Source: a virus
DNA length: 64,000 bases
Virus record (IMG/VR): IMGVR_UViG_3300035459_000118
Location: 34,972-98,971 of that record
Direction: 5' to 3' (one strand)
The translations under genes and the position numbers were made by a program. The notes under the pieces were generated by a model. That model saw only the letters and a program-made list of their open reading frames with translations. It did not search any database and was not told where the DNA came from. Within the stretch, counting starts at the first letter, position 1. Every line of letters begins with the position of its first letter. Positions 3,631-43,474 of the stretch are shown here, in pieces.

Positions 3631-5202
3631 ATGTCATTATTAAAGCGCAGGGTGGTCGATGTCTCCGCCGAGGAGGATATGTTAACGGGGATGATCGTCA
3701 GTGATACTTTTTGTCGCGATGTAGCAAAGTTGGTCAGTCCATACACTATAGAAACACCATACATCGCACGAATTATCAAATGGTGCCAAGAATATTATTA
3801 CAAGCATAAAGAAGCTCCTGGGATGCTCATCCAGAACATCTTCAATGCTGAAAAGGATAAGATTGATCCAGCCGAACAAGAAGCTATTTCAGGCATCCTC
3901 GTCAAATTGTCCGAACAATATGCCACTTCAGAAATTAACGTCGATTACTTCAAGGATCGTGCAATGGAGCTTATTCGTTCCAGGGCACAAAAATATGCAG
4001 CAACACAAATCCTCTCTCTTAATGAGATTGGCAAAACAAAAGAAGCAGAAATTATCTTCAAGGAATATCACACAATATCAATAGAAACTTCTGGCTGGGA
4101 AGACCCATTCAATCCTGCCGTTATTCGAAATCACTTTGTTGATGAGCAACTCCGCAAAAGCTATCTTTTCCAACTAAAAGGGGAAGTAGGGAAATTTATT
4201 GGCCCTTTTGAACGCAACTGGTTAGTAGCATTCATGGCTCCAGTCAAAAGAGGTAAAACATTTTGGCTTATAGAATTGGCACTGCAAGCAGTCTTTATGG
4301 GGAGGAGGGTCATTTTCATCTCACTTGAAATGAACCTGGAAAGAGTAAGAAGAAGGTTTTACAAACGGTTGACCTCAATGGTCAACGAAACCCTTGATTA
4401 TATTTTCCCTGTATTTGATTGCTTAAAAAATCAGGACAATACTTGTAATAAAAAAGAGAGAGCAATTGATATGAGATTGCTTGATTCAGAAGGTAAAAAA
4501 CCAATCTACACTAGAGAGCTAAAATACAAAGCATGTGAAGCTTGCCGAGGAACAAAAGATTTTATCCCAGCTACTTGGTTCACAACCAACAAAGTCGAAA
4601 AGATGAAAACCCAGAAAGCAATAAAACTACTCGATGCTCAAGCCAAACATTTTGGTTACAATACGAATTTTGGGAGCAACATCAGGACTCTTGCTTATCC
4701 GGCATTTTCTGCCAATCTTAGCCGGGTAAAAAGGGATATAATGAATCTGGTTGAATCCGGACATTTTATTCCAGATGTTATCGTAATCGATTATGCTGAC
4801 ATTCTTGCTCCAGAGGATTCCAGGATTATTGGTCGAGAACGAATAGATCAAACCTGGAAATCCTTGAAAGGAATAAGCGATGAAATGCATTGCATGGTTG
4901 CAACAGCCAGTCAATCAAACCGTGGTTCTTTTGAAAAAAAGAACGTGGTTCAGACTGATGCGTCTGAAGATATCCGTAAACTTGCTAATAGCGATTTATT
5001 TTTAGCAATAAATCAGACCCCACAAGAAAAGAAAGACAGCATAACAAGAATCTCAAGAATCGCTTGTCGCGATGAAAATTTTGATCAGTACGAGGGGGCA
5101 ATCGTGTTGCAACAACTTGCCCTTGGTCAAATTTGCCTTGATAGTTATATGGATAGGCCTACTACGGTATCGCAAATTTCTTATGAAGATTTTTTTGTAT
5201 AA
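3631..5202 (+). CDS. dnaB: Replicative SF4 helicase (DnaB/gp41-like)
   Basis: Walker A APVKRGKT, ISLEM, VIVIDYAD, TASQSNR, SEDI. Confidence 0.9.
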   Translation: MSLLKRRVVDVSAEEDMLTGMIVSDTFCRDVAKLVSPYTIETPYIARIIKWCQEYYYKHKEAPGMLIQNIFNAEKDKIDPAEQEAISGILVKLSEQYATSEINVDYFKDRAMELIRSRAQKYAATQILSLNEIGKTKEAEIIFKEYHTISIETSGWEDPFNPAVIRNHFVDEQLRKSYLFQLKGEVGKFIGPFERNWLVAFMAPVKRGKTFWLIELALQAVFMGRRVIFISLEMNLERVRRRFYKRLTSMVNETLDYIFPVFDCLKNQDNTCNKKERAIDMRLLDSEGKKPIYTRELKYKACEACRGTKDFIPATWFTTNKVEKMKTQKAIKLLDAQAKHFGYNTNFGSNIRTLAYPAFSANLSRVKRDIMNLVESGHFIPDVIVIDYADILAPEDSRIIGRERIDQTWKSLKGISDEMHCMVATASQSNRGSFEKKNVVQTDASEDIRKLANSDLFLAINQTPQEKKDSITRISRIACRDENFDQYEGAIVLQQLALGQICLDSYMDRPTTVSQISYEDFFV

Positions 5203-5213
5203 ATCTTCAACAA

Positions 5214-5234
5214 TTCATTAAAGAGGGGTATAAT
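5214..5234 (+). promoter_or_regulatory. Phage promoter motif copy 2
   Basis: ttcattaaa-gagg-ggtataat. Confidence 0.75.
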
Positions 5235-5301
5235 CATAATACAGAGGATTGGGAGTTACCCAAAATAAAAAATAGAAGAACAAAATGAAAGGAGAAAGAA
5301 G

Positions 5302-5898
5302 ATGGAAAAGGCAAGATTGATCGAGGGAGTTACCACACTGAACGCAGCGGAGTACGAAGTCGATGGGAAGAAACTGCCCATCATTACCGAAAAGATCAAG
5401 TACGTCGCCGTCAAGCTGGAAAAGATCGAAGCGGCATTCAAAGCGGCATGTGAAGGCGTCGCCGGCAAACCCCAGGAGGAATTCGTTCCTCAGCTCGTCG
5501 TCGACGTGTACAATGAATTGGTCGAACCCGCTGCTGCATCTGCCGAGGCCGAAGCAGCTGCTGCCGCCACTACCGAGACAACCGCAACAGAGGCTGCCGG
5601 AACCAAAGCCGAGGAAAAGAAGGCAGACACCAAGGCAGATGCCAAGAAAAAGGCTCCCCCGGCTCGGGCAAAGGATGCCTTCGGCAACGCCATCGGTTCC
5701 ATGACCGGTGAAATCGCTGCTGCCCTGGTCACCGGAGCGAAAAAGGAAGACATCGTCAAAACCCTGATGACCAAATTCGGCCGGACCCAGGAAAAAGCAG
5801 AGGCGTACCTCAAGGGATGCCTCAAGTCGTGGAAGGAACGAGGATTCCAGATCACGGTAAAAGACGAAGTCTACACCATGGCTCTCCCCAAGAAATAA
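5302..5898 (+). CDS. Ala/Glu/Lys-rich putative DNA-binding protein
   Basis: Own promoter and strong RBS, biased codons, low-complexity linker, basic helical C-terminal domain. Confidence 0.5.
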   Translation: MEKARLIEGVTTLNAAEYEVDGKKLPIITEKIKYVAVKLEKIEAAFKAACEGVAGKPQEEFVPQLVVDVYNELVEPAAASAEAEAAAAATTETTATEAAGTKAEEKKADTKADAKKKAPPARAKDAFGNAIGSMTGEIAAALVTGAKKEDIVKTLMTKFGRTQEKAEAYLKGCLKSWKERGFQITVKDEVYTMALPKK

Positions 5899-6050: not shown

Positions 6051-6800
6051 TTGAAAACCGAAGGGGCAACTATCTCTCACCTTCTGAAGAAGGTTTACCT
6101 CGGCGGGATCGTGGAAGAAGCGATCGTAGACTTTGGAGCCAACACAGTCCAGGCTGTCGATCCGACCAATTCCGTTTTTCTTAAGGTGTCAGAAAAACCT
6201 TCGGGGGACGGCATCGGCAGGGTTGGGATTGGAAGCCCAACCCTTTCCATGATCATCAAGCATTTTGATGCAATCAAAGGCGAGATTGCCATCACCCACG
6301 AAAACAATCGCCTGGTCGTAGGGGCAAAAGGTCGAGGAGAGGTAAGGTACCTCACCGTCAAAGAAGAATTCGTAGCCAGTGCTGTCGCTGAGGACAACAT
6401 TGGCGCACTCGTTGACCCCTGCATACTCACAGCCACATTGCCGGCACAGTCCTGCTCCGATTTCATGGCCTACATGGCTTTGGTAAAAACCAAGTCTGCC
6501 AAGTTCCGCTATTCCCAAAAAACCAAGACCGTTCATATCGAAAGTGGGCTGGAAAGCGAACACCAGTTTAATGTCCCGGTCGGAGCGGCAGAATTACTGA
6601 CCGATGATAAACCCGAAGACTTCTCTGTTATGGTTTACGGCAGCCATATTGACCAGATCTTCGGTGTTCTGGAATGGTCGGAAAAAGAAAAACCAGCCAT
6701 CCTCATGGCTCCGAACCATCCCTTGCTCATCGTTCAGAATGACGAAAACATTTGGGCTTGCCTCCCGTTGACGGAGTCGGCCGAAGAACAACAATCGTAA
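6051..6800 (+). CDS. Sliding clamp (gp45/PCNA-like)
   Basis: 249 aa (two-domain clamp size), QAVDPTNSVFL resembles the PCNA N-terminal motif, directly upstream of the clamp loader. Confidence 0.65.
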   Translation: MKTEGATISHLLKKVYLGGIVEEAIVDFGANTVQAVDPTNSVFLKVSEKPSGDGIGRVGIGSPTLSMIIKHFDAIKGEIAITHENNRLVVGAKGRGEVRYLTVKEEFVASAVAEDNIGALVDPCILTATLPAQSCSDFMAYMALVKTKSAKFRYSQKTKTVHIESGLESEHQFNVPVGAAELLTDDKPEDFSVMVYGSHIDQIFGVLEWSEKEKPAILMAPNHPLLIVQNDENIWACLPLTESAEEQQS

Positions 6801-6823
6801 GGAAACCGGCAGGAGCTGAGCGT

Positions 6824-7768
6824 ATGCAATCGAATCTCTCGCAGTTTATCTGGTACGAAAAACACCGCCCATCAATGCTGGACGAAATGACTCTTCCCGT
6901 CCAGTATCGTCGCGCTTTCGAAGGTTACCTGAAAGAAGGGAATCTTCCGCACTTGTTGTTTCATGGTCCCCAGGGTAGCGGGAAAACCACGTTGGCCTTC
7001 GTTCTCATGAACAACATCGACTGCGTGCGGATGATTTTGAACGCTTCGTCGAGCGACCGTGGCGTTGAAACCATGCGAGGAAAAGTGAAGCAATTTGCCT
7101 CAAGCCGAACAGTTGACGGCTCTCTGAAAATCGTGTTTTTTGACGAGAGCGACGGTCTGACTCCTCAGGCACAAGAGGCGCTGCGAAACACTATCGAAAC
7201 ATATGCCCAGACCTGCCGGTTTATTTTCACCTGTAACGAGATCGACCGTATCATTGGTCCACTTCAATCTCGTTTTACCATTTTTGAATTCTCGGCGTTT
7301 CCACTTGATCAGGTTATTCAACAAGCTGAAAAGATCTTGGTCAAGGAACGCATCGAATATGATATAGAAAGCGTCAAAAAAATTGTCAACCAGCATTATC
7401 CAGATGTAAGAGCAATAATTAATAATCTCCAGTTATGTTCATCTGGAGGCGATTTAAATCCCGAAACAGTTTCCAAAACAACCGTTGACCCGGCGTTGTT
7501 GCTTGATTGCATTGCCAACGGGGAAGTTGCAAAGATACGGAAAATGCTCGTTGGGATGTCAAACTTCGTATTCGTCTACCGTTACCTGTTTGATACTCTA
7601 TTGATGTGTGACGACCTCACACAAGAGCAAAAGATAGAAATAACCCACGCCTTGGCCGAAGGGCTTTACCGTGACGCGCTGGTTGCCAATCGGGAAATCA
7701 ATTTCATCGACTGTGTTATAAACATTATGGGGATTATTAAATGCCCCACCATTTCATTTTTGGGATGA
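6824..7768 (+). CDS. Clamp loader AAA+ subunit (gp44/RFC-like)
   Basis: WYEKHRP, GPQGSGKTT, LNASS.RG, FDESD, LQSRF; AGGAG RBS before ATG 6824. Confidence 0.92.
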   Translation: MQSNLSQFIWYEKHRPSMLDEMTLPVQYRRAFEGYLKEGNLPHLLFHGPQGSGKTTLAFVLMNNIDCVRMILNASSSDRGVETMRGKVKQFASSRTVDGSLKIVFFDESDGLTPQAQEALRNTIETYAQTCRFIFTCNEIDRIIGPLQSRFTIFEFSAFPLDQVIQQAEKILVKERIEYDIESVKKIVNQHYPDVRAIINNLQLCSSGGDLNPETVSKTTVDPALLLDCIANGEVAKIRKMLVGMSNFVFVYRYLFDTLLMCDDLTQEQKIEITHALAEGLYRDALVANREINFIDCVINIMGIIKCPTISFLG

Positions 7769-7772
7769 ACAA

Positions 7773-8210
7773 ATGCCCCTTGACCTTTTTGGTTTCATAG
7801 AAAATTTGTTTTCTAAAAAGCAATTCATAGATTCCAGGGAGCCGTATAAAGAGACCTATATGGCGATAAAGTTTTTGTCGCTATATCCCGGGACATTTAT
7901 AATTGCTGCCGTTGCCAACCGGCTTTCCTCAAAGATACCGGCTTGGGCAACTAATGTCTTTTTATTCAACACGATCAAGAAACAAAGGCCTCCTCATTTT
8001 CAGTATCCAAAGGCAGAAGAGAAAGAAAAACAGAAATGGCCCAAAGAAGCCATTCAAAAAATATGTAACAAGTTTTGTTGTTCCGAAGAACATGCTATAC
8101 AAATTTTGCAAATTTTATCAATGAAGGATCATCAAATTCTTGAATCTCTTGGCATAGGGCCAGAAGGAGAAAAGAAAAGTGGCAACAAAAAGAATCGAAG
8201 AGTTCCTTAG
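7773..8210 (+). CDS. Clamp loader small subunit (gp62-like)
   Basis: Size, position after gp44, N-terminal LFGFIENLF, C-terminal helical segment. Confidence 0.6.
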   Translation: MPLDLFGFIENLFSKKQFIDSREPYKETYMAIKFLSLYPGTFIIAAVANRLSSKIPAWATNVFLFNTIKKQRPPHFQYPKAEEKEKQKWPKEAIQKICNKFCCSEEHAIQILQILSMKDHQILESLGIGPEGEKKSGNKKNRRVP

Positions 8211-8667
8211 TAAAGGTGCAAAGCCGGACCCGGTCAGGCAATTTGAAAAGCTTTCCGCCGGCAAAAATAAAGAAGAAGTTCGAGAACTGGAAATGGCGAT
8301 GCTTACTCCAGAACCAATTCCACAATACGTCGGCGAAGAACAACGGTATATCATGAACAGCGAATTTACCGTGAAAATGGTCTTTGCCTCACAAGAGGAC
8401 ATGGACTTCTTTGGTCGATTCATACCAATTGCCAACTATATGGAAAAATCTATAACCGACCTCAAGATCATGTTCGACCTTTTCCGTTCTATAGATGCCG
8501 GCAAAATTTCTTATGATAAAAAGACCGGAGTTTTTCAAATAGAAGCAGAAAAGTCAATAGAGTTACCAAAACTCCCCACCCCTCCATCTGCAAGAACAAT
8601 TATTGAAGGAGTAAAAATCATTGGAAACGACACAACAACACCCATTAAACGATTCTTCCGCCGTTAA
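8179..8667 (+). CDS. Hypothetical protein with C-terminal IKRFFRR tail
   Basis: AGGAG RBS; overlapping GTG start. Confidence 0.6.
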   Translation: MATKRIEEFLSKGAKPDPVRQFEKLSAGKNKEEVRELEMAMLTPEPIPQYVGEEQRYIMNSEFTVKMVFASQEDMDFFGRFIPIANYMEKSITDLKIMFDLFRSIDAGKISYDKKTGVFQIEAEKSIELPKLPTPPSARTIIEGVKIIGNDTTTPIKRFFRR

Positions 8668-8685
8668 ATAGAAAAGAATATAAAA

Positions 8686-9567
8686 ATGCCAAGACCCCAT
8701 AAATATAAGAAAAGACAAAAAGACCTAGGTGGTCCTTGTCCAATTTGTGGAGAACCAAGGAAACTATATAAAAAGACTTGTTCAAAAGAATGCAGTTCTA
8801 CCTTGAAGTCTAGAACTTTAAAGAAAATGTATGATTCTGGAGAATTAGATTTTTTAAAAGATATTCAAAAAATAGTTGGGACTGGGAACCTTGTCGCATT
8901 TAACAAAACAGAAAAAGGCAGAGAAAATGCTTCTGTTGCTTGCATAAAAAGAAATACAATCCATGGGAACCCTACAGAGAAAGAAACAATACGAATAAAG
9001 ATAAGTTCTTCTAGAAAAGAAGGATTGGCTTCTGGAAGAATTCAAAATCCAATGTTAGATCCGATAAAAGCCAAAGAAGCTGGGAGAAAAAGAAAAGCTG
9101 CCTATGATTCTGGTGAAAAAGTTCACCATATGAAAAACCCCTTAGTGGTAAAAAAAGTAAGCGAATCTCTCAAAAAAGCCTATGCATTAGGGAAAATAAC
9201 CCCAAATAGTGTTGTTTATCGGTGTCATTACCATAGAGGTTGGTATGTTGATAAGAATGGTAATTTCCAATTTTATGCAAGCAATTGGGAATTTTTAAGA
9301 ATGGAATTTTTAGATAGCTGTACAGATATAAAATGGAGAAAAATTAGACAAGAATACCGAATCCCATATATCGATATGACAGGAGTACATAGAACCTATT
9401 TTCCGGACTTCGAGGTTCAATTTGGTGATAAAATAATTATAGAAGAAATTGGAATTCATACAGAAGAAAAACAACATAAAATAAGATGTGCTAAGGAATA
9501 TTTTAATAACAAAACAGAAATTTTTGTTGCTCTTGGAGGAAACCAATTAAATGAAAGAACTTGGTAA
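8686..9567 (+). CDS. Putative homing endonuclease (zinc finger, NUMOD-like repeats, TnsA-like PD-(D/E)xK domain)
   Basis: CPIC..CSKEC, basic repeats, YASNWE..IPY..RTYFPDF..IIEEIG; AT-rich. Confidence 0.7.
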   Translation: MPRPHKYKKRQKDLGGPCPICGEPRKLYKKTCSKECSSTLKSRTLKKMYDSGELDFLKDIQKIVGTGNLVAFNKTEKGRENASVACIKRNTIHGNPTEKETIRIKISSSRKEGLASGRIQNPMLDPIKAKEAGRKRKAAYDSGEKVHHMKNPLVVKKVSESLKKAYALGKITPNSVVYRCHYHRGWYVDKNGNFQFYASNWEFLRMEFLDSCTDIKWRKIRQEYRIPYIDMTGVHRTYFPDFEVQFGDKIIIEEIGIHTEEKQHKIRCAKEYFNNKTEIFVALGGNQLNERTW

Positions 9568-10996
9568 AGATATTGACCCGCTGGAAATAGAAATCAGAAC
9601 AACCGCACAACGATGGCTCAATAATAACAAGAACCTTTTAATTTCTGGAAGTGACTACCAAAGCCCAAGAATTAGCAGTGAAATCCCTGATTGCAGTATG
9701 CCGCTCAGCATGGATACGTATAAATTTTGTTCTCTAAGTTGTTGTTATTGTTTCAGTTTTTTCTTTAAAGCAAATAATCCAGCAATAAAAAATTCTGAAA
9801 CAGGAATGGATCTTACCAGTATTAATGCAAAAAAATTTATAGCTGCAATTTCTGGAAAACCTATTGACAGTCGTGGAGCTATGATGCATAAGCTTTTCTA
9901 TAACCGTAAATTTCTTTTACACATAGGAGGATTGGCTGATCCCTTCTGTAATTTCGAGGCAAAAAACGGAGTAGGCTATGAAATAATGAATGCTCTGGGT
10001 GATTTGAACTACCCCACTTTATTCTCTACCAAAGGAGCCAATGTTGCATTAAGCAAAAAGTATACCGACCTCTTCGAAAGGTATGCCAAACAAAACAACT
10101 TCGCCTTTCAAGTCAGCATGGTGACCAATGATAAAAACATGGCTTCCAGGGTAGAAATTGGAGTCCCATCCCCAGAACAAAGAATCGAATTGATTCGTCG
10201 ATATAGTGCTATGGGGTATTGGACAATCCTCCGGTTACGACCTTATATTATTGGTATTACCGACGAGTCAATCGACAGTCTCCTGGAAGATGCTCTGGCA
10301 GCTGGCATCAATGCAATCAGCATGGAATTTTACGCTCTTGATGCAAGGGCTTCAGGGGAAGCCAAAAAACGCTACGATTGGCTCGGAAAGATCGTTGGCG
10401 CCAAGAACCTCATGGAATACTTCGCTCGACTTTCTCCCGGTGAACGTGGGGGATATCGTCGGTTGAATCGTCTTGTCAAAGAAATCCATGTCAAGAAGGT
10501 CTACAAGTTCTGTATCGAACATGGCCTAGAGTTTGGTTGTTCAGACCCTGATTTCAAGGAACTCACCACGACCGGATCATGTTGCGGGATGCCAGACAAA
10601 TACGAAAAGAATCATCTTCTGGAAAACTGGACCCGCCAGCAGATGACATTCCATCTTAAGGAAGCAAGAAGAATCTATCATTTAACCGGCAAATTGAATA
10701 CTTTCCGGTTTACCCAGGTATACAAAGACGAACCATATTTTGACTATCCTGGCCTAAGTCACGATCATGTTTGTGAAACAAGTATGTGCGCAGCCGACCG
10801 GGTAAACCTTACTTACCGTAGAATCCTACGCAACTATTGGAATAATCTCCGTTCGTATGCTGCTCCCCAAAACTACTTTCATGGGAAAGTCATCGCTTGC
10901 GGGATGGATGAAAACAAAGATTTGATCTATACGTATAATCCTATGCCGTATGAGAAACATTGGGCTGAAGAGGGGATTGACTTGAAAGGAAAGTAA
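9551..10996 (+). CDS. Radical SAM enzyme (spore-photoproduct-lyase-like family)
   Basis: CSLSCCYC CxxxCxxC motif, GGLADPF, STKG, RLRPYI, SCCG. Confidence 0.85.
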   Translation: MKELGKDIDPLEIEIRTTAQRWLNNNKNLLISGSDYQSPRISSEIPDCSMPLSMDTYKFCSLSCCYCFSFFFKANNPAIKNSETGMDLTSINAKKFIAAISGKPIDSRGAMMHKLFYNRKFLLHIGGLADPFCNFEAKNGVGYEIMNALGDLNYPTLFSTKGANVALSKKYTDLFERYAKQNNFAFQVSMVTNDKNMASRVEIGVPSPEQRIELIRRYSAMGYWTILRLRPYIIGITDESIDSLLEDALAAGINAISMEFYALDARASGEAKKRYDWLGKIVGAKNLMEYFARLSPGERGGYRRLNRLVKEIHVKKVYKFCIEHGLEFGCSDPDFKELTTTGSCCGMPDKYEKNHLLENWTRQQMTFHLKEARRIYHLTGKLNTFRFTQVYKDEPYFDYPGLSHDHVCETSMCAADRVNLTYRRILRNYWNNLRSYAAPQNYFHGKVIACGMDENKDLIYTYNPMPYEKHWAEEGIDLKGK

Positions 10997-11562
10997 TGAG
11001 TAAGTGCATTTTCATCGATACAGAAACTACATCCGCCAATCCCGATAGGGGTGGGCTGATTCAACTTTCAGGGATCATTGAAATTGATGGCACAATAGCC
11101 GAAGAATTCGATATTCATACCAACATTTTCAAGAATGACGAAGTGACAGAAGAAGCCCTTCAAACAAATGGATACACATTGGAACAAATCTATGGCTTCT
11201 CCCATCCCAACAAGGCTTTTGTCGAATTTAGAAAGCTCCTCGAAAAATATGTTGACCCGTATAATAAGGCTGACAAATTCATTGCCCTGGCCTATGTTGC
11301 GAATTTTGACAATACAGTCCTAAGAGAATGGTTTCGTAAAAACGGCTCCCAGTATTTTGGCAGTTATTTTTGGCACCCTTGGATTGATATATTCAATCTT
11401 GCGGCCTATTTATATCAAGACCAACGAGCGCAATTTGAGAATTTCAAAATGAAAACCGTTGCTGCTTATTTGGGAATTGAATGTGATCAAGAGCAATGCC
11501 ATGGAGCACTTTACGACACGAAAATTGCCCGGCAAATATACTACAAATTAACGAGTCAATAG
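10996..11562 (+). CDS. DEDDh 3'-5' exonuclease (DnaQ-like proofreader)
   Basis: FIDTETT, ANFD, HGALYD. Confidence 0.88.
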   Translation: MSKCIFIDTETTSANPDRGGLIQLSGIIEIDGTIAEEFDIHTNIFKNDEVTEEALQTNGYTLEQIYGFSHPNKAFVEFRKLLEKYVDPYNKADKFIALAYVANFDNTVLREWFRKNGSQYFGSYFWHPWIDIFNLAAYLYQDQRAQFENFKMKTVAAYLGIECDQEQCHGALYDTKIARQIYYKLTSQ

Positions 11563-11571
11563 GAGGAGAAA

Positions 11572-12669
11572 ATGGGAAACAAAAAAGTCAGGGTCGCTAT
11601 CATCGGGGTTGGGAACTGCGCATCGTCATTGGTGCAAGGTGTGCACTATTATCGGAATGCCAACGAAAAAGAAACAGTCCCAGGATTGATGCATGTCAAC
11701 TTGGGAGGGTACCATGTGAACGACATCGAATTTGTTGCAGCCATCGACGTTGCCGCAGCCAAAGTAGGCAAAGATCTTAACGAGGCGATCTTTGCCGGCG
11801 AGAATAATACGATTTGTTTTGACCAAGGACTCGTCAATATCCCAAGCGGAGTTACCGTCCAGAGGGGAATGGTCCATGATGGCATTGGGCAGTATCTCAA
11901 GGAGGTCATCCCAATTGCTCCTGGGTCGACCGAAGATATCGTTCAGCTGCTGAAAGACACCCATACCGATGTGGTCGTGAACTATTTGCCGGTCGGTTCC
12001 GAAGAAGGAACAAAATGGTATGTAGAACAAATCCTGCAAGCCGGTTGTGCCATGGTCAACTGCATTCCTGTTTTCATCGCCTCGGCACCGTTCTGGTCAA
12101 ACAGGTTTAAGGCAAAAAATCTTCCCATTGTGGGGGATGACATCAAATCGCAGGTCGGAGCGACAATTACGCACCGGGTATTATCGTCTCTGTTTCAGGC
12201 TCGGGGAGTCCGCCTTGACCAAACATACCAACTAAACTTTGGTGGCAATACGGATTTCCTCAATATGCTGGAACGTGGCAGGCTGGAGTCAAAGAAGATT
12301 TCCAAGACCAGTTCAGTCCAGTCTACTATGGAAAAGGAATTGAACTGTAACGATATTCATGTCGGTCCTTCAGACTATGTTCCGTTCCTCACCGACCGTA
12401 AGTTCTGTTACATCCTCATGGAAGGAACCACGTTCGGCAATGTTCCCCTGAAGCTCGAACTCAAGCTCGAAGTCTGGGACAGCCCCAACAGTGCCGGCGT
12501 CGTGATTGATGCCGTCAGGTGTGCAAAATTGGCTTTTGACAATGGGGTGTCAGGAGCCTTGAAATTACCCTCGGCCTATTTCATGAAACACCCAGCCGAG
12601 CAAATCGAGGATACCATTGCGAAGCTGAAGCTGGAAGAATGGATCAAAATGATTGGAGAAAAGGAATGA
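11572..12669 (+). CDS. ino1: Myo-inositol-1-phosphate synthase
   Basis: [60 protein letters not shown]; full length with intact motifs. Confidence 0.97.
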
Positions 12670-13370
12670 AAACAATACCAGGATTTGAGTTTCGGGAAGA
12701 TTCTAATGCAGACATACGAGCCTTTTCCGAAGCTCGACATGACTGGAAATTGTTTACGTTCCCTGGAGAGGCAAGGGTCTTGGACTTGGGTGCCCATATA
12801 GGGATATTTGCCTATTTTGCGGCACCCAATTGCCGTAAACTCTTGTGTGTAGAACCATCACGAGAATCGTTCAATATCCTCGAACGCAATGCCAAGCTGA
12901 TAAAAACCGTATTCCCAGCAGTGGAAATAGAAACACTTCCCGCTGCAGTGGTTCAAAGCGAATTGAACGGACAAAAAGTCCAGCTTTACCAAAAGAAAAA
13001 TTCCGAAACCAGCGACACCCTCCTCCCAACTAGGGGGAGGGTCGGAAGTTCAACCATGGGGGTAGGCATCCTGGAACTCTGCAAAAGGTTCCTCCCCACC
13101 ACAATCAAATGTGACATAGAATGTTCCGAATACAATGTCATCCCAGAAATCCTGTCATTCTCAAGCATACTGGAAATTGGGATTGAATTCCACCGGCTCC
13201 AACAGGGAGACAACTTGGAAAGGGCTAAAGCCATTTCCGAAGCCATCATCAATAACTGGGGAGGAGGCCATGTTATTATTAAACCTCCTGTTTTTGACAA
13301 AAAATATTGGAATACTGTAGCCATATACAGGCGTAACCTTTCCTCAAGATTCAGGAAGAACAATGGATAA
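12666..13370 (+). CDS. FkbM-family SAM methyltransferase
   Basis: [25 protein letters not shown]; ATGA overlap with ino1. Confidence 0.85.
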
Positions 13371-14481
13371 ATCCGTCGAAAGCGTCAGGAAAATTGCCGC
13401 CGAAGCCGATCAATGGAAGAACTTTGCCGATTTTTGTCGACTTGAAATGGCGGTAGGTGGGCCAGACCCTCACATGAAGTTGACCGCAGCAATGTGCAAT
13501 CTAGATTCGTGTCCCTGGTCAGAAAAGGCATGGAGGGGACTTTGTTACCTTGGAGTTTACAATGTTCCCACCGCCGAGCAAATATGGAATGCGTGGCACT
13601 TTGAGCGATCTATCATTGAGAGGGAAGAATTTCTTCCTTGGTTTACCAAACACTGGCAAGGGATTGCGCTCCGTCGGGAGCGTAAAAGTGCCCGTAGCCC
13701 AATCAAGATGGCAAAGTATTTTGAAACCGCTTCTGCTTGGCTTTCTGAAGCACTCCTTGATAAAAAAGAAGGGATCGGATGGATCGGAGGGATGAAAGAT
13801 TTATCCCCTTTTGACCGTTACGAATTTGCCTGGGAGAATGTCCAGCAAATATACTCGATGGGTCGCTACATTGCTTTCAAGTATCTTCAGTATGGGATGC
13901 AATATCTTGATTTCCCTATCAATCTGCAAGATATCCGAGCAAAAGGAGGATGGTCTCCTCGTGCCATGTTGGCAATTCTTTGGCCAGATCAGGCAGTTCC
14001 TATCCTGGGAGGGGATTCTCCAGAAGAAATTGCAGTTGTTGATACGTATGCTGCGAAAACAAAAGCATATTTATTAGAAGGGTATGGAGTAGACCTCTCT
14101 TGGTATAATTTGCAGGTCTTGCTATGCGACTACAAACAATGCTATGTTGGGAAAAGGCAATTCCCAGGGAGAAGTCAAGATAGTGAAATTGCCTATGCCA
14201 AGAAGATTGAAGATTATTGGGGAGGCGATACAATTATGTGGGAGGCTCGCTCCATGATCTTTCCTCATCAAGCCCTAGGAGAAATGAATGGTTGGTATTC
14301 TGTCCGTGAAGAATTAGGCAAGGTCCTTTACGACCATGGATATATGTGGTCTGATCTGATTTACGATTACAATCTTTCAAAAACCCGTCTTGCTACTCCA
14401 GTGAAACACGGGGAGAAGCCAGGGAAAAGTCAAAAAACCCTAGCCTGGGAGTCAGGATTCGGGAGGTTTTTTAAAAAGTGA
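13363..14481 (+). CDS. Amino acid:DNA transferase (aGPT-PPlase2/ADDT-like, HhH-glycosylase fold)
   Basis: GGPDP N-terminal motif, RRERK, HhH-like MGRYIAFKY, SPR, QVLLCDYK..FPGRSQD matching the E-x-x-L-C-x-x-K..Y-P-G pattern. Confidence 0.75.
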   Translation: MDKSVESVRKIAAEADQWKNFADFCRLEMAVGGPDPHMKLTAAMCNLDSCPWSEKAWRGLCYLGVYNVPTAEQIWNAWHFERSIIEREEFLPWFTKHWQGIALRRERKSARSPIKMAKYFETASAWLSEALLDKKEGIGWIGGMKDLSPFDRYEFAWENVQQIYSMGRYIAFKYLQYGMQYLDFPINLQDIRAKGGWSPRAMLAILWPDQAVPILGGDSPEEIAVVDTYAAKTKAYLLEGYGVDLSWYNLQVLLCDYKQCYVGKRQFPGRSQDSEIAYAKKIEDYWGGDTIMWEARSMIFPHQALGEMNGWYSVREELGKVLYDHGYMWSDLIYDYNLSKTRLATPVKHGEKPGKSQKTLAWESGFGRFFKK

Positions 14482-15542
14482 GCACCTTAAAGGTCCATAC
14501 TATTATTCCCGGAAAACTATACCAGAGAGGGGAATTTGTTAAACTCTCATTGAAAGAGAAGTTGAGCGAACTACAAAGGCTCAGGGTGAATATCATCGTC
14601 AACCTCTGGAATATCCCAGACATTCTTTTGAAGGATGAAATTCCTTATTATTATCACCTTCCAATCCCAGACAGCACCATAAAAGATAGTCAGTTATTGC
14701 TACATACCGTAAAAGAAGTTGCGCAGCTAATCAAAAATGGTGGAAATGCTATTGTTCATTGTCATGCTGGAAGAAACAGGAGTGGGTTGTTCAATGCTTT
14801 GTTGTGTATGAACTTATTGGGGATGTCGGGTACCGAGGCAATAGAACATGTCAGAAAACGCAGACCAAATGCGCTGGCGAATGAAAACTTCGTGAAGTTT
14901 ATTCTTGAACAAGGAGAAAATAAGATGCTCACGCGTAGAATAATCGCCATTGGTGGAGTCCCAGGAACAGGAAAAACCTGTTTGGTCAGAAAATTAATGG
15001 AGCCGGAAGATCAATGGGGTTGTTGCGAACTTGCAAAACTCTTGGTTGCCGAATATAACAAAACACTCAATTTATACGTTTTGGGGAAATACGAAAAAGG
15101 CGAGGTTTTCGCTGGAACCGATCGGCTTTCCATGGCCGTCCAGCCAGAAGCACAAAAATGGGTTGAATCAAGTTGTTCCAATATCCTTTTCGAAGGAGAC
15201 CGGCTTTTCAATGGATCTTTTCTGAGCTTCCTTTTGACCTTGCCGAATACTGAATTGCTCGTGATTTACCTGAAAGCCTCAGAATTTGAACTGAGGAAAA
15301 GATATCAACAACGAGGTTCCGACCAATCCTTACAATTCCTGAAGGGAAGAGAAACAAAATACGCCAAAATCAGACAAGATATGAGGCTCCGAAAATTCAG
15401 TTGCGAGTTTGCCCATGAAACCCCAGAAGATACAAAAAAGATCATTGCCACTGTTCAAGCCTTTCTTTCCACTGGAACTTTACCCCCTACATTGCAAACC
15501 GCTGCCCCCACAGGAATCATGAGCTTCCTTAAAAAGAGGTAA
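14478..15542 (+). CDS. CX5R (PTP/DSP) phosphatase fused to P-loop nucleotide/DNA kinase (5-hmdU-kinase-type family)
   Basis: PIPD loop and HCHAGRNRS; then GGVPGTGKT, VLGKY, FAGTDRLSMAVQP, ILFEGDRLF. Confidence 0.82.
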   Translation: MSTLKVHTIIPGKLYQRGEFVKLSLKEKLSELQRLRVNIIVNLWNIPDILLKDEIPYYYHLPIPDSTIKDSQLLLHTVKEVAQLIKNGGNAIVHCHAGRNRSGLFNALLCMNLLGMSGTEAIEHVRKRRPNALANENFVKFILEQGENKMLTRRIIAIGGVPGTGKTCLVRKLMEPEDQWGCCELAKLLVAEYNKTLNLYVLGKYEKGEVFAGTDRLSMAVQPEAQKWVESSCSNILFEGDRLFNGSFLSFLLTLPNTELLVIYLKASEFELRKRYQQRGSDQSLQFLKGRETKYAKIRQDMRLRKFSCEFAHETPEDTKKIIATVQAFLSTGTLPPTLQTAAPTGIMSFLKKR

Positions 15543-15544
15543 CA

Positions 15545-18500
15545 ATGTTTACACACCTGCATGTCCATAATCACTTCAGCTACCTCGATGGCTTCGGTAC
15601 CGAAGAAGAATACATCAAAAGAGCCAAAGAACTCGGAATGACACATCTTGCTATCACAAATCACGGGAACGTGGATGGCAATATCAAATTTCAAAAAGCC
15701 TGTAAGAAAGCTGGGATCACCCCCATCCATGGGTGCGAACTCTATGTTATTCCTGATGAATATCAAAAACCCAAAGGCGAAAAAAGAGGACATATAATCG
15801 TCCTTGTTAAAAACGCGAAGGGATGGCAGAATCTTTGTCAAATGCTCACCATCGCCCACCTTGAGGGCTTCTACTATAGGCCTCGCATCGGATACAAGAA
15901 TTTTCTGGAACGGTGCGAAGGGTTGGTCGTTCTGACAGGCTGTTCTTCTTCGTTTTTAGCAAAAGACACCACCGACAAAGCACTTGATTTCGTTTCCGCA
16001 TTGTATGACAAAATAGGGTCAGATTTATATCTGGAAACAATGCCCCACCGTCTGGAAGAACAAGACAAACAAAACGCTCTGTGCCTCGATTTTCAGGGAC
16101 AAGTAGGAAATATTAAGCTAGTTGCCACCAACGACTGTCATTATATCCATCCCGATGAAGCCGAATCCCAAGAAGTTCTTTTGGCAATTCAAACCAAAAA
16201 GAAATGGTCAGAAACCGACCGTTATCGCTTTACTATCAGAGGGCTTTACCTCAAGTCAGAAGAAGAAATGCGCCGAGCATTCAAATTACAAGCAATTCTC
16301 TCTGATTCCCAAATCGATCAGGCATTTGCTTCAACGATGGAAATAGCTGAAAAATGCCAATTTCTGATTCCTAAACAGGACATCTCTCTCCCAAAAGTTC
16401 CTGGATATGAAAACGAAGACCCAGGGAAATTTATATGGGACCTAGCCGAGAAGAAACTCTTAAAAATCAGCGAAAATTGGTCGACTGAAAAGATCAATAT
16501 ATACTTGGACCGGCTTTCAGAAGAATGGAAGTTGATAAATTCAAAGAACTTCAGTCAATATTTTATGATCATCTGGGAATTAACTTCTTGGTGCCGTAAG
16601 AATAAAATACCCGTTGGCCCTGGCCGTGGCAGCGTAGGAGGGAGCCTTCTGGCTTATCTTTTGGAAATCACTACGTGTCTAGACCCCATTGAGTATCATC
16701 TTTTGTTTTCTCGTTTTATCGCAGAAGACCGTATTGATTATCCTGATATCGACTTAGACTTTGCCGATATAGAACGTCTTAGAATTCGCGAACATCTTGA
16801 AGCCCTTTATGGGAAAGATCACATTTCCTCCCTTTCCACATTCACAACAATGAAAGGAAGGGGTTGTGTTCGTGATGTTTGCCGGGTATTTGAAGTTCCA
16901 ATATACGAAGTCGATGCATTGGCAAAATCTATTTTTGAAGACCCAGAATCAGATGAAAGTGGCGTTGAAAATGTTTTAAAAAACACCGATTTTGGGAAGG
17001 TATTTCTTGAAAAGAACCCCAAGGTATGTCAGCATATTCTAAAGCTGGAAGGTCAATGCCGTGGAGCCGGCCAACATGCAGCGGCAATAATGATTTCCGG
17101 AGAAAGCCTCCGCAACGGGACAAGAGGCAACCTTGTCATGCGCTCCGAGGAAACCGTCACCAATTGGGATATGGGGGACTCTGAATACGTAGGATTAATG
17201 AAACTCGATGTCCTTGGGTTGAATACCCTTTCCGTATTAGAAGAAGCCAAACGGCTCATTATCAAAAACTCAGCAAAAACAGGGTTTGATTTCGACTCAA
17301 TCCCATTGAATGATGAAAAAGTTTACCAGAGTCTTTATGAAGGAAACACCAATGGAGTTTTTCAGTTTTCAGCTTGGGCGACTACCAATCTTGCCAAACA
17401 ACTTAAAGCAACCAATATTTTTGAACTCGCCGACATCATCGCCCTAGTAAGGCCAGGTCCAGCAGACAGCGGACAAACCGACTTGTATATTAAACGAAAG
17501 AACGAAGGGTTGGAATGGCAACCAAAGCATCAAATTTATGAAGAAATAACTAGGAATACTTTTGGCATCATCGTGTATCAAGAACAAGTAATGGAAGTTA
17601 TTCATAAGGTCGCTGGATTACCTTATGCTACTGCTGATAAGATTCGCAAGATCATTGGTAAAAAAAGAGATGTTAAAGAATTCCAGCCTTATAAGGATGC
17701 CTTTATACAAGGTTGCGCAAAGATGAAAACCCTCTCCCATAAAGAGGCTGAAGAATTCTGGGAGATGCTTGAAAAACACGCACACTATAGTTTTAACAAA
17801 TCCCATTCTATCGCCTATGCCCTTATCGGTTATTGGACTTCTTGGATAAAGGTCCATTTCCCCGTTGAATTCATCTGCGCTTCTCTTACTTACGGTTCAG
17901 AAAGCAAGAAAGAAGATCTCCTACAAGAAGCCTTCGATATGGGGTTGAAAATCATTACCCCCAAAATTGGTATTTCTGATGCAACAGTATGGGTAGCAAA
18001 AGACGACTCCCTCTATATCCCATTCAATGAAATAAAAGGGGTCGGAGATACGACCGCCAAGAAACTGAGTGAGGTTAAAGAAGCCGCAATTCCTATACGC
18101 AAGGGCTTCTTTTGGCCAACCAAGCAAATTAAAGCTCCTCAAAAATCGGTTAATAAAAAAGTAGACTCATTGCTTGCTCAAATTGCCGAGGCTGAAAATA
18201 CTTCTAAAGATTTATCGGAATTCTTCTCTTTCAAAATCCCTTCTGATCGGCAAAAAAATTACGATATTCTGAAAAGAACTATACCTCAATTTGACGGGAA
18301 CAAAAGATGGTTGAACCTCGATGTCCCTGAAATTAAAAGCAACCAACCATTAATTTATGAAAAATCTTTTGTCCCAAAACGATCGCTCGGAAGATGTAAC
18401 GATTGCGAACTGCACAAGGAATGCGACGGTCCAGTCCCATCTTCGCCAGGAATATTCAATGTCGGAATAATAGGAGAGGCTCCAGGATTTGATGAAAATC

Positions 18501-18919
18501 AACAAAAGAAAGGTTTTGTTGGTAAGTCTGGGAAGATGCTTTGGGATGAACTGATAAAATATGATCTTCGGAGAGAAGACTTCCATGTCGGTAATGCTGC
18601 TAAATGTTATCCCGGGATCAACAAAACTCCATCTGCCGAACAACTGAAAATTTGTTCAGAAAAATGGTTGTTCCCCGAACTAAAAGAAATTGACTGTAAA
18701 TTGATACTGGCTTTTGGCAATTGTTGCCTCCAGGCATTTATGGGGAAGAAATCGGGGATAACTCAGATAAGCGGAACCACGGAATGGTGCGAGAAAGCTG
18801 GAGCCTGGATATGCTTTTGTGTTCACCCCGCATTTGTTTTAAGAAGCCCAGAAAATAAAAACCTCTTTAAGTCTGGAATTAAAAACTTCGTCGATAAAAT
18901 TCGTCTATTAGAAGGGTAA
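15545..18919 (+). CDS. dnaE: DNA polymerase III alpha with C-terminal family-4 uracil-DNA glycosylase domain
   Basis: PHP HLHVH..SYLDG, GPGRGS, PDIDLDF, KLDVLG, YSFNKSH; C-terminal CNDC..GEAPG..FVG..KCYP..C..HPA. Confidence 0.95.
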   Translation: MFTHLHVHNHFSYLDGFGTEEEYIKRAKELGMTHLAITNHGNVDGNIKFQKACKKAGITPIHGCELYVIPDEYQKPKGEKRGHIIVLVKNAKGWQNLCQMLTIAHLEGFYYRPRIGYKNFLERCEGLVVLTGCSSSFLAKDTTDKALDFVSALYDKIGSDLYLETMPHRLEEQDKQNALCLDFQGQVGNIKLVATNDCHYIHPDEAESQEVLLAIQTKKKWSETDRYRFTIRGLYLKSEEEMRRAFKLQAILSDSQIDQAFASTMEIAEKCQFLIPKQDISLPKVPGYENEDPGKFIWDLAEKKLLKISENWSTEKINIYLDRLSEEWKLINSKNFSQYFMIIWELTSWCRKNKIPVGPGRGSVGGSLLAYLLEITTCLDPIEYHLLFSRFIAEDRIDYPDIDLDFADIERLRIREHLEALYGKDHISSLSTFTTMKGRGCVRDVCRVFEVPIYEVDALAKSIFEDPESDESGVENVLKNTDFGKVFLEKNPKVCQHILKLEGQCRGAGQHAAAIMISGESLRNGTRGNLVMRSEETVTNWDMGDSEYVGLMKLDVLGLNTLSVLEEAKRLIIKNSAKTGFDFDSIPLNDEKVYQSLYEGNTNGVFQFSAWATTNLAKQLKATNIFELADIIALVRPGPADSGQTDLYIKRKNEGLEWQPKHQIYEEITRNTFGIIVYQEQVMEVIHKVAGLPYATADKIRKIIGKKRDVKEFQPYKDAFIQGCAKMKTLSHKEAEEFWEMLEKHAHYSFNKSHSIAYALIGYWTSWIKVHFPVEFICASLTYGSESKKEDLLQEAFDMGLKIITPKIGISDATVWVAKDDSLYIPFNEIKGVGDTTAKKLSEVKEAAIPIRKGFFWPTKQIKAPQKSVNKKVDSLLAQIAEAENTSKDLSEFFSFKIPSDRQKNYDILKRTIPQFDGNKRWLNLDVPEIKSNQPLIYEKSFVPKRSLGRCNDCELHKECDGPVPSSPGIFNVGIIGEAPGFDENQQKKGFVGKSGKMLWDELIKYDLRREDFHVGNAAKCYPGINKTPSAEQLKICSEKWLFPELKEIDCKLILAFGNCCLQAFMGKKSGITQISGTTEWCEKAGAWICFCVHPAFVLRSPENKNLFKSGIKNFVDKIRLLEG

Positions 18920-18927
18920 CTTATTAT

Positions 18928-19740
18928 ATGATAATTTATAAAATTGAAAATAAAATTAATGGTAAAATTTACATTGGAAAAACAACAAAATTATTAAATC
19001 AAAGAATTGCTGGTCATATAAAACAAAATCACTCTCGTATTCAAAAAGCCTTAAGAAAATACGGGATTGAATCTTTTATAATTTCTACTATTGATTCCGC
19101 AACTTCGCAAGAATCCCTCAATGAAAAAGAAAAGTATTGGATTAAAACTTTGAATTGTCAACACCCTAATGGATATAATTTTACTATCGGTGGAGATGGG
19201 GGACCAACATGGACAGGAGGAAGACACACCCAAGAAACAATAAAGAAAATGAAAGAAAGAAAATTTTCAGAAGAACATAAACAAAAATTAAAAGGTCCTA
19301 AATCAGAAGAACATAAACAAAAAATTTCAAAAGCTCTTTCCGGAGAAAGAAATCCTAATTATGGGAAGCCTCTTTCTGAAGAAACAAAATTAAAAAAGAG
19401 ATTAGCGATGTTAGGGAGAAAAGATTCAGAAGAAACAAAACTAAAAAAGAAAAATGCAGCGACAGGGAAACATCCTTCTGATGAAACGAGGATTAAACAA
19501 AGGGAATCGCATTTAGGGCAAATTTGGAGCGATGAAGCAAGAGAAAAAAGTCGAAAAGCCCATTTAAATAAATCACATATTTGTAGCGACGAGACAAAAG
19601 AAAAAATACGTAAGTCTCGCTTAAACATAAAGCATTCCAAAGAATCAAAAGAAAAAATGAGTAAAATCAAGAAAGGGAAACCATGGAATCAAGCGAGAAG
19701 AGATGCATATAATAAAAAATATCAAAAACTTCGTCAATAA
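18928..19740 (+). CDS. GIY-YIG homing endonuclease with NUMOD3 repeats
   Basis: IIYKI..KIYIG, GYNFT.GG, SEEHKQK/SEETK repeats; AT-rich. Confidence 0.9.
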   Translation: MIIYKIENKINGKIYIGKTTKLLNQRIAGHIKQNHSRIQKALRKYGIESFIISTIDSATSQESLNEKEKYWIKTLNCQHPNGYNFTIGGDGGPTWTGGRHTQETIKKMKERKFSEEHKQKLKGPKSEEHKQKISKALSGERNPNYGKPLSEETKLKKRLAMLGRKDSEETKLKKKNAATGKHPSDETRIKQRESHLGQIWSDEAREKSRKAHLNKSHICSDETKEKIRKSRLNIKHSKESKEKMSKIKKGKPWNQARRDAYNKKYQKLRQ

Positions 19741-20338: not shown

Positions 20339-20878
20339 ATGTCATTTGAAACTCCCGACCTCAATTATGCCGAAGACATCAAGGTAGACCCATACAACCT
20401 TGACCTTGAATGGGCTCAGTTGCCAGGTTTGCATTCCAAGTGGGCAACCAGGCTTATTGAGGTTGAGAATCAGCGCGACCGGCTCAGGGAACAGATCGAG
20501 CTGAAATATGCCGAATTGGATCTGGAAATCCGATCCAACCTCGCGCAATACAAACTGGGAGAAGGCTCTCCGGAACGTGCGATTAAATCCACCATCGTAA
20601 AGAATGAACAATATAAAACCCTCCAGCAGCAATACCTGAACGCGAAGTATGCGGCGAAAGTCTTGAGGATCGCCGTTAAGGGAATAAAAGATAAAGAGAA
20701 AACCATCGATCGTTTGACCAAGCTCTATCATGATCAGTATTACATGAAGCCGTACAAAGGCAAAGAGGAGGGTGAGTTGTCAGAAAGAAAGCCGGAAGAT
20801 GAGGCAACCGAAAACACGGCAGGGGCAACGGCAGCCCTTAATGCCCATATGAACGTAAAAAGGTTTTTCAGGAGATAA
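20339..20878 (+). CDS. Recombination mediator (UvsY-like)
   Basis: DIKVDPYNLDLEW, helical coiled coil, located near ssb and uvsX. Confidence 0.7.
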   Translation: MSFETPDLNYAEDIKVDPYNLDLEWAQLPGLHSKWATRLIEVENQRDRLREQIELKYAELDLEIRSNLAQYKLGEGSPERAIKSTIVKNEQYKTLQQQYLNAKYAAKVLRIAVKGIKDKEKTIDRLTKLYHDQYYMKPYKGKEEGELSERKPEDEATENTAGATAALNAHMNVKRFFRR

Positions 20879-28044: not shown

Positions 28045-28214
28045 GGCAAATCCCTTTTGGGAATACACATAAAGGAAAAGACATTGAAGATTGTCCGACT
28101 GATTATCTGACTTGGCTCAAAGGCGAAAAATGGTTCCAGGATAAGTATCCTGCATTGCGCAAGAATATACTTGCGGAATTGAAATACAGAGAAAGATTTG
28201 GTGACCCGGAATGA
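28029..28214 (+). CDS. Small PFG-K-G domain protein (DUF3820-like)
   Basis: IPFGNTHKGKDIEDCPTDYLTWL. Confidence 0.65.
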   Translation: MAESLGQIPFGNTHKGKDIEDCPTDYLTWLKGEKWFQDKYPALRKNILAELKYRERFGDPE

Positions 28215-38332: not shown

Positions 38333-38335
38333 GAC

Positions 38336-41247: not shown

Positions 41248-41249
41248 TT

Positions 41250-43463: not shown

Positions 43464-43474
43464 GACATTTCCTT

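Follow-up and report, generated by a model that had tools for sequence, protein, structure and literature searches.

The ino1 gene of the IMG/VR virus record IMGVR_UViG_3300035459_000118 encodes a myo-inositol-3-phosphate synthase (Ino1) and is part of an operon that also encodes an ADDT-family DNA transferase and a P-loop kinase. The record is the 99 kb genome of an uncultured phage (98,971 bp, with direct terminal repeats), and the sequence analyzed here, termed the window, is its last 64 kb (64,000 nt, positions 34,972–98,971 of the record). The genes of the operon have been identified, and the linkage of Ino1 to ADDT is strong and is repeated in other viral loci. The evidence moderately favors reading this block of genes as a DNA hypermodification cassette inside a replication operon. 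With about the same moderate confidence, the cassette is predicted to add a cyclitol derived from Ino1 to a thymine-type base by way of the kinase and ADDT, giving an inositol-bearing DNA base.

Gene order and junctions

All genes of the block are on the plus strand. Ino1 (window positions 11572–12669, 365 aa) is followed by an FkbM-family S-adenosylmethionine (SAM) methyltransferase at positions 12666–13370, which has 234 aa when read from its ATG (the frame is open from position 12639, 243 aa), and by the ADDT-family 5-(phospho)methyl-pyrimidine:nucleophile DNA transferase (13363–14481, 372 aa). The next open reading frame (14478–15542, 354 aa) is a fusion of a cysteine-based dual-specificity/protein tyrosine phosphatase (DSP/PTP) domain at 14478–14927 with a P-loop kinase domain of the Ploopntkinase3 type at 14928–15542, presumed to be a hydroxymethyl-pyrimidine DNA kinase. 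A DnaE-type replicative polymerase of 1124 aa comes next (15545–18919) and has a C-terminal uracil-DNA glycosylase (UDG) domain at about 18461–18865. On the other side of ino1, the first gene of the block encodes a 481 aa SplB-like radical SAM protein (9551–10996). Between this gene and ino1 is a replication gene, encoding a DnaQ-like 3′–5′ exonuclease (10996–11562, 188 aa; 53.5 bits with PF00929 RNase_T; phrog_192, DNA polymerase exonuclease subunit).

The TGA stop codon of ino1 overlaps the in-frame ATG at position 12666 as ATGA, as read from the sequence. The methyltransferase and transferase genes overlap by 8 nt (ATGGATAA), a GTGA overlap joins the transferase to the phosphatase-kinase gene, and dnaE starts 2 nt past the TAA stop of the latter. 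The order of these five genes and all four junctions had been described in an original prediction made from the sequence of the window, and were found correct on re-reading.

In a blastn search with the block as query, no cultured phage was matched. The arrangement is not a product of chance: it is kept in two relatives at 64%–84% protein identity and is widely recurrent.

Linkage of Ino1 and ADDT in viral genomes

Two surveys were carried out. An alignment of 28 ADDT homologues was used to obtain 42 IMG/VR loci, and gene neighborhoods were counted in the best 80 viral Ino1 loci. Ino1 (51%–71% identical) is directly upstream of ADDT and on the same strand in 17 of the 42 ADDT loci, and one further locus has it at a distance of 10 kb. 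If only loci with at least 1.2 kb of upstream sequence are considered, Ino1 is upstream in 15 out of 35; it is upstream in all five metagenome ADDT loci with upstream sequence. Among the 25 ADDT records without an adjacent Ino1, the one with Ino1 at 10 kb is the only one that has it elsewhere. Conversely, 50 of the best 80 Ino1 loci have an ADDT gene no more than 10 kb away, always in the same orientation; the distance is at most 1 kb in 49 of them and at most 100 bp in 24. The original prediction proposed the co-occurrence of ino1 with ADDT and kinase across phage genomes as a check, and it is present from both directions (18/42 ADDT loci; 50/80 Ino1 loci).

Two close relatives from the metagenome scan, L050 and L051, keep the linkage, and the pairing is recurrent; unlinked ino1 in relatives had been named beforehand as evidence that would speak against the pathway. 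The order in L050 is radical SAM, Dam-like methylase, exonuclease, Ino1 (84%), FkbM (65%), a 362 aa protein, ADDT (76%), phosphatase-kinase (70%), a canonical ThyX and dnaE. In L051 the order is radical SAM, a 133 aa open reading frame, exonuclease, Ino1 (80%), ADDT (75%), phosphatase-kinase (64%) and dnaE (53%), with no FkbM. L050, the closest relative, has two additional genes in the block: one for the Dam-like N6-adenine methylase, which follows the radical SAM gene (positions 995–1975 of that locus), and one for the 362 aa protein, which has no family match, between FkbM and ADDT (positions 4429–5517). Of all proteins of the block, Ino1 is the one that differs least between close relatives (80%–84% identity in L050 and L051, versus 53%–58% for DnaE).

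In the ADDT tree, Ino1-linked genes are spread over many subclades and over two subfamilies, between which lies a very long branch. The recurrence of the Ino1–ADDT pairing exceeds by far what chance would give, and a single inherited arrangement does not account for it either. A different view would be that Ino1 is a generic auxiliary metabolic gene derived from a host and placed in a replication operon by chance. Its 70%–72% identity to the housekeeping Ino1 of Chloroflexota and other bacteria fits such an origin, but Ino1 relatives are found in 292 of approximately 2.9 million IMG/VR contigs, i.e. about 1 in 10,000, versus 43% of the loci with this ADDT clade. In addition, same-strand, immediate adjacency persists across deep divergence, and no other gene of the block is as well conserved among relatives as ino1. 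Chance placement is disfavored and is considered very improbable.

A functional connection of Ino1 with the ADDT/kinase machinery for hypermodification is well supported by this conserved adjacency, seen in both search directions. This central part of the earlier interpretation stands. The role it gave to the phosphatase, its 5-hydroxymethyluracil (5-hmU) substrate and its claim that no other use for inositol was in evidence are unsupported or incorrect in detail, and FkbM is optional, as shown below.

The loci may be divided by the genes that accompany ADDT as a possible base supply. ThyA/HMUDK genes are found in 36 loci, and Tet/JBP with a Ploopntkinase3-type kinase in seven loci and in Caulobacter phage Cr30. 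A SplB-like radical SAM protein with the same type of kinase, and with neither ThyA nor Tet/JBP, is present in the window genome and in L050, L051, L016 and L040. Ino1 occurs with all three supply types. Pfam searches of representative relatives showed HMUDK_HMUD1 kinase, HMUDK_hel, ThyA-like hydroxymethylase, HD dNMP-ases, radical SAM/SPASM proteins, PolA (some with UDG), and ParB with Tet/JBP.

Among cultured phages, Ino1 is found in 19 of 50,697 records. Phage Cr30 has an ADDT (180 bits) two genes from Ino1, together with Tet/JBP-like and kinase3-type matches. Ralstonia phage RP13 has a weak ADDT-like match 4.8 kb from Ino1, with 23.8% identity over 73% of the ADDT of Cr30 (E-value = 1e-6); PF18724 does not match RP13. 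The DNA of RP13 is reported to be hypermodified and the phage to encode an aGPT-Pplase (PMC13697223).

Homing endonucleases are found near some of these genes. A GIY-YIG/NUMOD3 homing endonuclease is located directly 3′ of dnaE in the window (18928–19740, plus strand), and in locus L048 related homing endonucleases split the Ino1–ADDT pair.

The Ino1 protein

The Ino1 amino acid sequence matches PF01658 (120.7 bits, E-value = 4e-35) and aligns over its full length (residues 4–358) with the Mycobacterium tuberculosis Ino1 structure 1GR0 (465 bits, E-value = 2e-138). Ari2 (6K96), a five-membered cyclitol synthase, gives only 177 bits; this gap favors the six-membered ring product of a myo-inositol-3-phosphate synthase. 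With TIGR03450, the mycothiol-type INO1 model, the score is 496 bits and is below the equivalog cut-off of 638 bits, which is set in a model tuned to actinobacterial enzymes, whereas the closest cellular relatives of this Ino1 are in Chloroflexota.

Cellular Ino1 sequences with 70%–72% identity are found on long cellular contigs of Chloroflexota and Verrucomicrobiota (Anaerolineales, Ornatilinea, Thermomicrobiales, Dehalococcoidia and Verrucomicrobiae). The DSPNSAG block is among those retained in the alignment of viral Ino1 sequences. We regard the protein as a genuine synthase of inositol-3-phosphate from glucose-6-phosphate, of recent bacterial origin, in agreement with the first assignment of ino1. 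The Ino1 tree shows no clearly independent captures; the cellular sequences that were sampled group together as a single clade inside the viral sequences. A 590 aa sequence, P0241, looked like an enlarged Ino1 but has an internal duplication and no fusion to a methyltransferase.

The ADDT transferase

The transferase scores 42.5 bits with PF18724 (ADDT; cut-off 26.2), and the value is the same in the whole-genome scan. An AlphaFold model built on the 28 homologues has a pLDDT of 92. The best solved match of this model (VIA-align) is the 5-PmdU glycinyltransferase gp46 of phage PaMx11, with Z = 16.7 and a root mean square deviation of 3.4 Å over 244 of 287 residues; the next-best family, the helix-hairpin-helix (HhH) glycosylases, gives a Z of 9.1 or less. 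PaMx11 gp46 is also the top Foldseek match (probability 1.00). This protein (PUGT) is the solved member of the ADDT family, with a helical, HhH-glycosylase-like fold. R104–R107, W197 and C255 are invariant across the 28 homologues and are candidate counterparts of the Arg-rich DNA loop (R94/H95/R97), the aromatic base-clamp residue (W146) and the catalytic Cys (C247) of PUGT.

Neither the single sequence nor a profile gave a sequence-level match in the PDB, and this is also true of the ADDT of Cr30. The connection to PaMx11 gp46 is therefore made by fold search only, as the sequence is too divergent for PDB matches. The cut-off score and the fold match together bear out the view that the protein is an ADDT homologue.

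A total of 118 ADDT homologues was found, and some of the proteins are ADDT–PTP fusions. A profile scan of genome contigs with the ADDT alignment yielded no relative, thus no prophage or cellular copy is seen by this pattern-limited search. When viral and metagenome contigs were scanned with patterns from a single protein, nothing was retrieved; it was the alignment-based scans that gave loci.

The phosphatase-kinase fusion and other phosphatases

The fusion of a CX5R phosphatase with a P-loop kinase had been recognized at the outset and is confirmed. Residues 29–145 match PF00782 (DSPc) with 52.3 bits (cut-off 33.5), and the phosphatase P-loop has the sequence HCHAGRNRS, which is of the HCX5R type. 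Residues 152–305 match PF18751 (Ploopntkinase3) with 27.7 bits (cut-off 27), and the Walker A motif is GVPGTGKT. Homologous stand-alone kinases of the Ploopntkinase3 type are found beside Tet/JBP in the seven ADDT loci of that supply type and in Cr30.

Some CX5R enzymes, e.g. PTEN, PTP-like phytase and Siw14, are inositol-phosphate phosphatases, and the phosphatase of the window had been assigned to this role. However, a DSP/PTP phosphatase follows ADDT in 40 of the 42 loci, with or without Ino1 (the majority of these loci have no Ino1). It is not present in the genomes of Cr30, Moby and RP13, and is missing from Cr30-type systems that do pair Ino1 with ADDT. In the PDB, the sequences closest to it are those of small archaeal PTPs, of DUSP10 and of a baculovirus polynucleotide 5′-phosphatase, i.e. 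generic PTP/DSPs and a polynucleotide phosphatase and not inositol phosphatases. The phosphatase is therefore a core partner of the ADDT clade and not a dedicated inositol monophosphatase.

Phosphatases of another type are linked to Ino1. A capped HAD_2 phosphatase is located between Ino1 and ADDT in six loci, and a capless HAD phosphatase of 116–169 aa immediately follows Ino1 in 14 loci as well as in Stenotrophomonas phage Moby. The small protein has the motifs DxDGV, TGRS, K and EDD, and its predicted fold (pLDDT 91) is nearest to the T4 Pnkp 3′-phosphatase, lipin and the Nir2 LNS2 domains. A synthase together with a phosphatase constitutes a complete route to free inositol, which makes it more credible that the pathway is meant to provide a cyclitol. 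In Cr30, the gene that follows Ino1 was considered as a further small HAD phosphatase but is unrelated to that family.

The C-terminal ends of two block proteins are similar to each other. ADDT ends in GFGRFFKK (positions 14440–14481) and the phosphatase-kinase in IMSFLKKR (15500–15542), and a comparable tail, KRFFRR, is found on a 162 aa protein (8620–8667) and a UvsY-like protein (20830–20878), both of the replication module. These basic-aromatic tails could serve for docking to the clamp or the replisome. They are lacking in Ino1 and FkbM, a distribution that fits a soluble precursor and DNA enzymes that are tethered to the replisome.

The FkbM methyltransferase

The methyltransferase scores 45.4 bits with the FkbM family model TIGR01444 (cut-off 37.7), as had been predicted, and has no Pfam match at E ≤ 0.01. 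An FkbM homologue is found at the same place in L050, L009/L055/L063, L010/L062, L015/L101 and L083. In L083, an apparent Ino1–FkbM fusion was found to be two genes in different frames with an ATGA overlap.

Of the 80 Ino1 loci, 17 have FkbM adjoining Ino1, and some of these are without ADDT. FkbM is missing from the close relative L051 and is present in four ADDT loci without Ino1. It is an optional tailoring step, with the cyclitol as its putative substrate.

Comparison with known systems

The pathways of thymidine hypermodification in phages PaMx11, M6, ViI, PhiW-14 and SP10 were reportedly described by Lee and colleagues in 2018 and 2021. In these phages, a 5-hmdU DNA kinase and an aGPT-Pplase2/ADDT enzyme are found together among replication genes, as in the window. 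The ADDT fold of the window is that of PaMx11 gp46, and its relatives carry ThyA-like hydroxymethylase, HMUDK and HMUDK_hel. The differences are that Ino1, with or without FkbM and an HAD phosphatase, replaces the pyridoxal phosphate (PLP) decarboxylase, radical SAM isomerase, flavin adenine dinucleotide (FAD) lyase or acetyltransferase; that a Cys phosphatase is a constant partner, whereas none is mentioned in the papers on the studied systems; and that the window genome has neither a hydroxymethylase nor a dioxygenase.

A second group consists of systems in which a T-dioxygenase (Tet/JBP, with or without ParB) forms 5-hmU after replication (PMC13229309; PMC8989533). Tet/JBP and ParB accompany the set of Ploopntkinase3 kinase, ADDT and PTP in seven related loci and also in Cr30. 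The window genome is unlike these in having no Tet/JBP; in the five systems without both Tet/JBP and ThyA there is a SplB-like radical SAM protein.

The UDG domain of the polymerase also has parallels. The T-hypermodified phages SP-15, YerA41, Carin-5 and RP13 have replicative polymerases with UDG (PMC13697223), and RP13 is in addition the phage with Ino1 and the weak ADDT-like match. In those phages the polymerase is of the A family, while in the window UDG is C-terminal on a complete C-family polymerase with PHP, DNA_pol3_alpha and finger domains (PF03167 UDG, 65.8 bits, residues 973–1107).

In the mycothiol pathway, Ino1 is followed by MshA, which acts on inositol-3-phosphate, and then by the phosphatase MshA2. 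The block has the same bacterial-type Ino1 and the same order of synthase, transferase and phosphatase. By analogy, inositol phosphate could be the acceptor and be dephosphorylated afterwards. The block differs in that it has no MshA-type glycosyltransferase, MshB, MshC or MshD, its transferase is a DNA-base enzyme, and the TIGR03450 match is below cut-off.

Full-text literature searches yielded no paper in which inositol or Ino1 is connected with base modification in phages, and the statement in the original prediction that no inositol base modification had been described is consistent with this. Neither Ino1 nor a phosphatase appears in a metavirome survey of clusters for thymidine hypermodification.

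Proposed pathway

From the order and identity of the genes we infer a cyclitol as the transferred group, a sequence of steps and a role for the phosphatase, and also which base is modified and where it comes from. Ino1 would convert glucose-6-phosphate to inositol-3-phosphate, and the P-loop kinase would phosphorylate a 5-hydroxymethyl pyrimidine of newly synthesized DNA, most probably 5-hmU. ADDT would then exchange the phosphate for a hydroxyl of the cyclitol rather than for an amino acid, to give 5-(inosityl-oxymethyl)uracil. A precedent for this step is the ViI enzyme, which displaces the phosphate with the hydroxyl of serine (PMC8989533). In phages that carry FkbM, the cyclitol may be O-methylated. 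The kinase-fused Cys phosphatase would act on DNA, where it may remove either the phosphate of an appended inositol phosphate or unreacted 5-phosphomethyl groups.

Evidence against the pathway and alternative explanations

Several observations weigh against transfer of a cyclitol to a thymine-type base. Some concern ADDT and its partners. The characterized ADDTs all transfer amino acids or amines (PMC8989533, PMC11472151). Over half of the ADDT clade is without Ino1, including three complete genomes, and in the ADDT tree Ino1-linked and Ino1-free proteins are close sisters, with at least eight changes. Thus ADDT specificity does not visibly track Ino1. Ino1 is also found in viral loci without ADDT, i.e. 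7-deazaguanine clusters, ThyA/C5-methylase loci and plain replication modules. The match of the kinase to its family is marginal, just above the cut-off, and the inositol-bearing nucleoside is so far only predicted.

The genome also has a ten-gene glycan biosynthesis cluster (36913–45689, minus strand), next to a tail fiber gene at 46177–47076. It encodes methyltransferases, a 218 aa DegT fragment, a 772 aa double GT2 protein, GNAT, a GH130/43-like propeller, WbqC and GT2, and may serve virion or host-surface glycosylation. This cluster is 21 kb away, so that an alternative sink for inositol exists in the genome; it had been overlooked when no nearby gene was thought to offer another use.

These points bear on an explanation in which ADDT still installs an amino acid or amine, and Ino1 acts indirectly or has a different use, with inositol (or its phosphate) being a regulator, a decoy versus host defence or a glycan building block. 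The known ADDT substrates, the great similarity of the Ino1-free sister ADDTs, the glycan cluster and the Ino1 loci without ADDT all fit this explanation. On the other hand, no relative has the glycan cluster in synteny with Ino1, while ADDT is 1 kb or less away in 49 of the best 80 Ino1 loci. Translational coupling runs through ino1, fkbM and ADDT, and where Ino1 stands there are no genes for amino acid tailoring such as PLP decarboxylase or FAD lyase, radical SAM/SPASM being the alternative neighbor. The explanation is regarded as unlikely.

A second set of unfavorable observations concerns the base itself. The 98,971-bp genome shows no ThyA-like dUMP hydroxymethylase (PF00303) and no Tet/JBP (PF12851) at E ≤ 1, and it has no dUTPase. 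Its only thymidylate-related genes are a T4 gp1-like dNMP kinase (28211–28840, plus strand; PF21448 DNMK, 71 bits) and ThyX (28801–29928, plus strand; PF02511 Thy1, 109 bits), which overlap by 40 nt. ThyX has an insertion of about 30 aa and a C-terminal extension of 80 aa, and it keeps the canonical motif RHR..S..S.RY; thus it bears no sequence mark of a hydroxymethylase. (The ThyX of L050, between phosphatase-kinase and dnaE, is short and canonical.) As there is no ThyA-like enzyme, no Tet/JBP and only a canonical ThyX, the genome shows no known source of 5-hmU or another hydroxymethyl base, and the 5-hmU that the original prediction required is left without its expected enzymes.

It may be that the cyclitol is attached in another way. 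Inositol-3-phosphate could be the nucleophile and react through its phosphate to form a phosphodiester link, or the base could be 5-hydroxymethylcytosine, or the product could be made directly on thymine, in place of 5-hmU from the nucleotide pool. SP-15-type phages have phosphodiester-linked sugar acids on a thymine derivative, according to work cited in PMC13697223. Cr30-type Ino1–ADDT loci often have a C5 cytosine methylase with Tet/JBP, and the window genome has ThyX and no hydroxymethylase. The phosphatases linked to Ino1 include capless HAD and DSP types, whose usual targets are macromolecules, but the capped HAD_2 enzyme that lies between Ino1 and ADDT in six loci suggests that free inositol is made first. 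No cytosine methylase is seen within the window. Such attachments are regarded as improbable, and transfer of a cyclitol hydroxyl to a hydroxymethyl pyrimidine is the preferred pathway.

The radical SAM protein might be considered in relation to the absence of a base supply. It resembles “DNA repair photolyase” proteins, with 63 bits for NCBIfam rSAM_PA0069 and 52 bits for the Rv2578c family (both under cut-off), and it has a CX3CX2C motif at C60/C64/C67. Its gene is syntenic in L050 and L051 and adjoins the kinase gene in L016 and L040. Among Ploopntkinase3 systems, it and ThyA or Tet/JBP are mutually exclusive: the five systems that have neither of the latter all carry it, and the others do not. 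The family is large, however, with at least 516 matches at 52%–80% identity, some with inteins, and it is a core replication-module gene in 37 other loci (L134–L170) that are mostly without ADDT, which counts against a special part in the pathway. In many phage contigs, the gene is located between the clamp loader and a UDG-bearing polymerase. A dedicated role was rejected for this reason, and the tie of the gene to the modification pathway is circumstantial. What is kept, at low probability, is the idea of an oxygen-free route to (methyl)inositol-thymine without a hydroxymethyl-dUTP pool: thymine would be provided by ThyX, the SplB-like protein would functionalize its methyl group in place of Tet/JBP, the kinase would activate it and ADDT would add the cyclitol.

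Other settings of viral Ino1

Ino1 is found within 7-deazaguanine DNA-modification clusters in phage Moby (L001, positions 6201–11615) and in L075, L080, L113, L119, L121 and L125. The order in Moby is FolE, Ino1, HAD, QueC, DpdA, QueE, and a small HAD gene after Ino1 is also present in L125.

In another ADDT-free setting (L110, L111, L117, L122, L127, L128 and L130–L133), a protein of 350–375 aa with a faint match to GDSL esterases is encoded beside Ino1. The GDSL-like gene is directly upstream of Ino1 in most of these loci and downstream in L110 and L111, and FkbM and a small HAD gene often come after Ino1. Most of these loci have a ThyA-like gene, a C5 cytosine DNA methylase, or both, nearby.

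Implications

The pairing of Ino1 with ADDT is frequent in uncultured phages (dozens of unrelated contigs) and is present in Caulobacter phage Cr30, which can be grown on a common laboratory strain (C. crescentus CB15), and, more weakly, in RP13. The constant Cys phosphatase partner and the lack of a known 5-hmU source are further features that set these pathways, and this lineage, apart from the studied systems. The described thymidine hypermodifications of the kinase/transferase type are all built from an amino acid or a polyamine. A cyclitol on a base, if true, would therefore represent a new class of natural DNA chemistry and would widen the known range of nucleophiles used by ADDT enzymes. 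It would probably also alter the encounter of phage DNA with restriction enzymes, CRISPR nucleases, glycosylases and sequencing chemistry.

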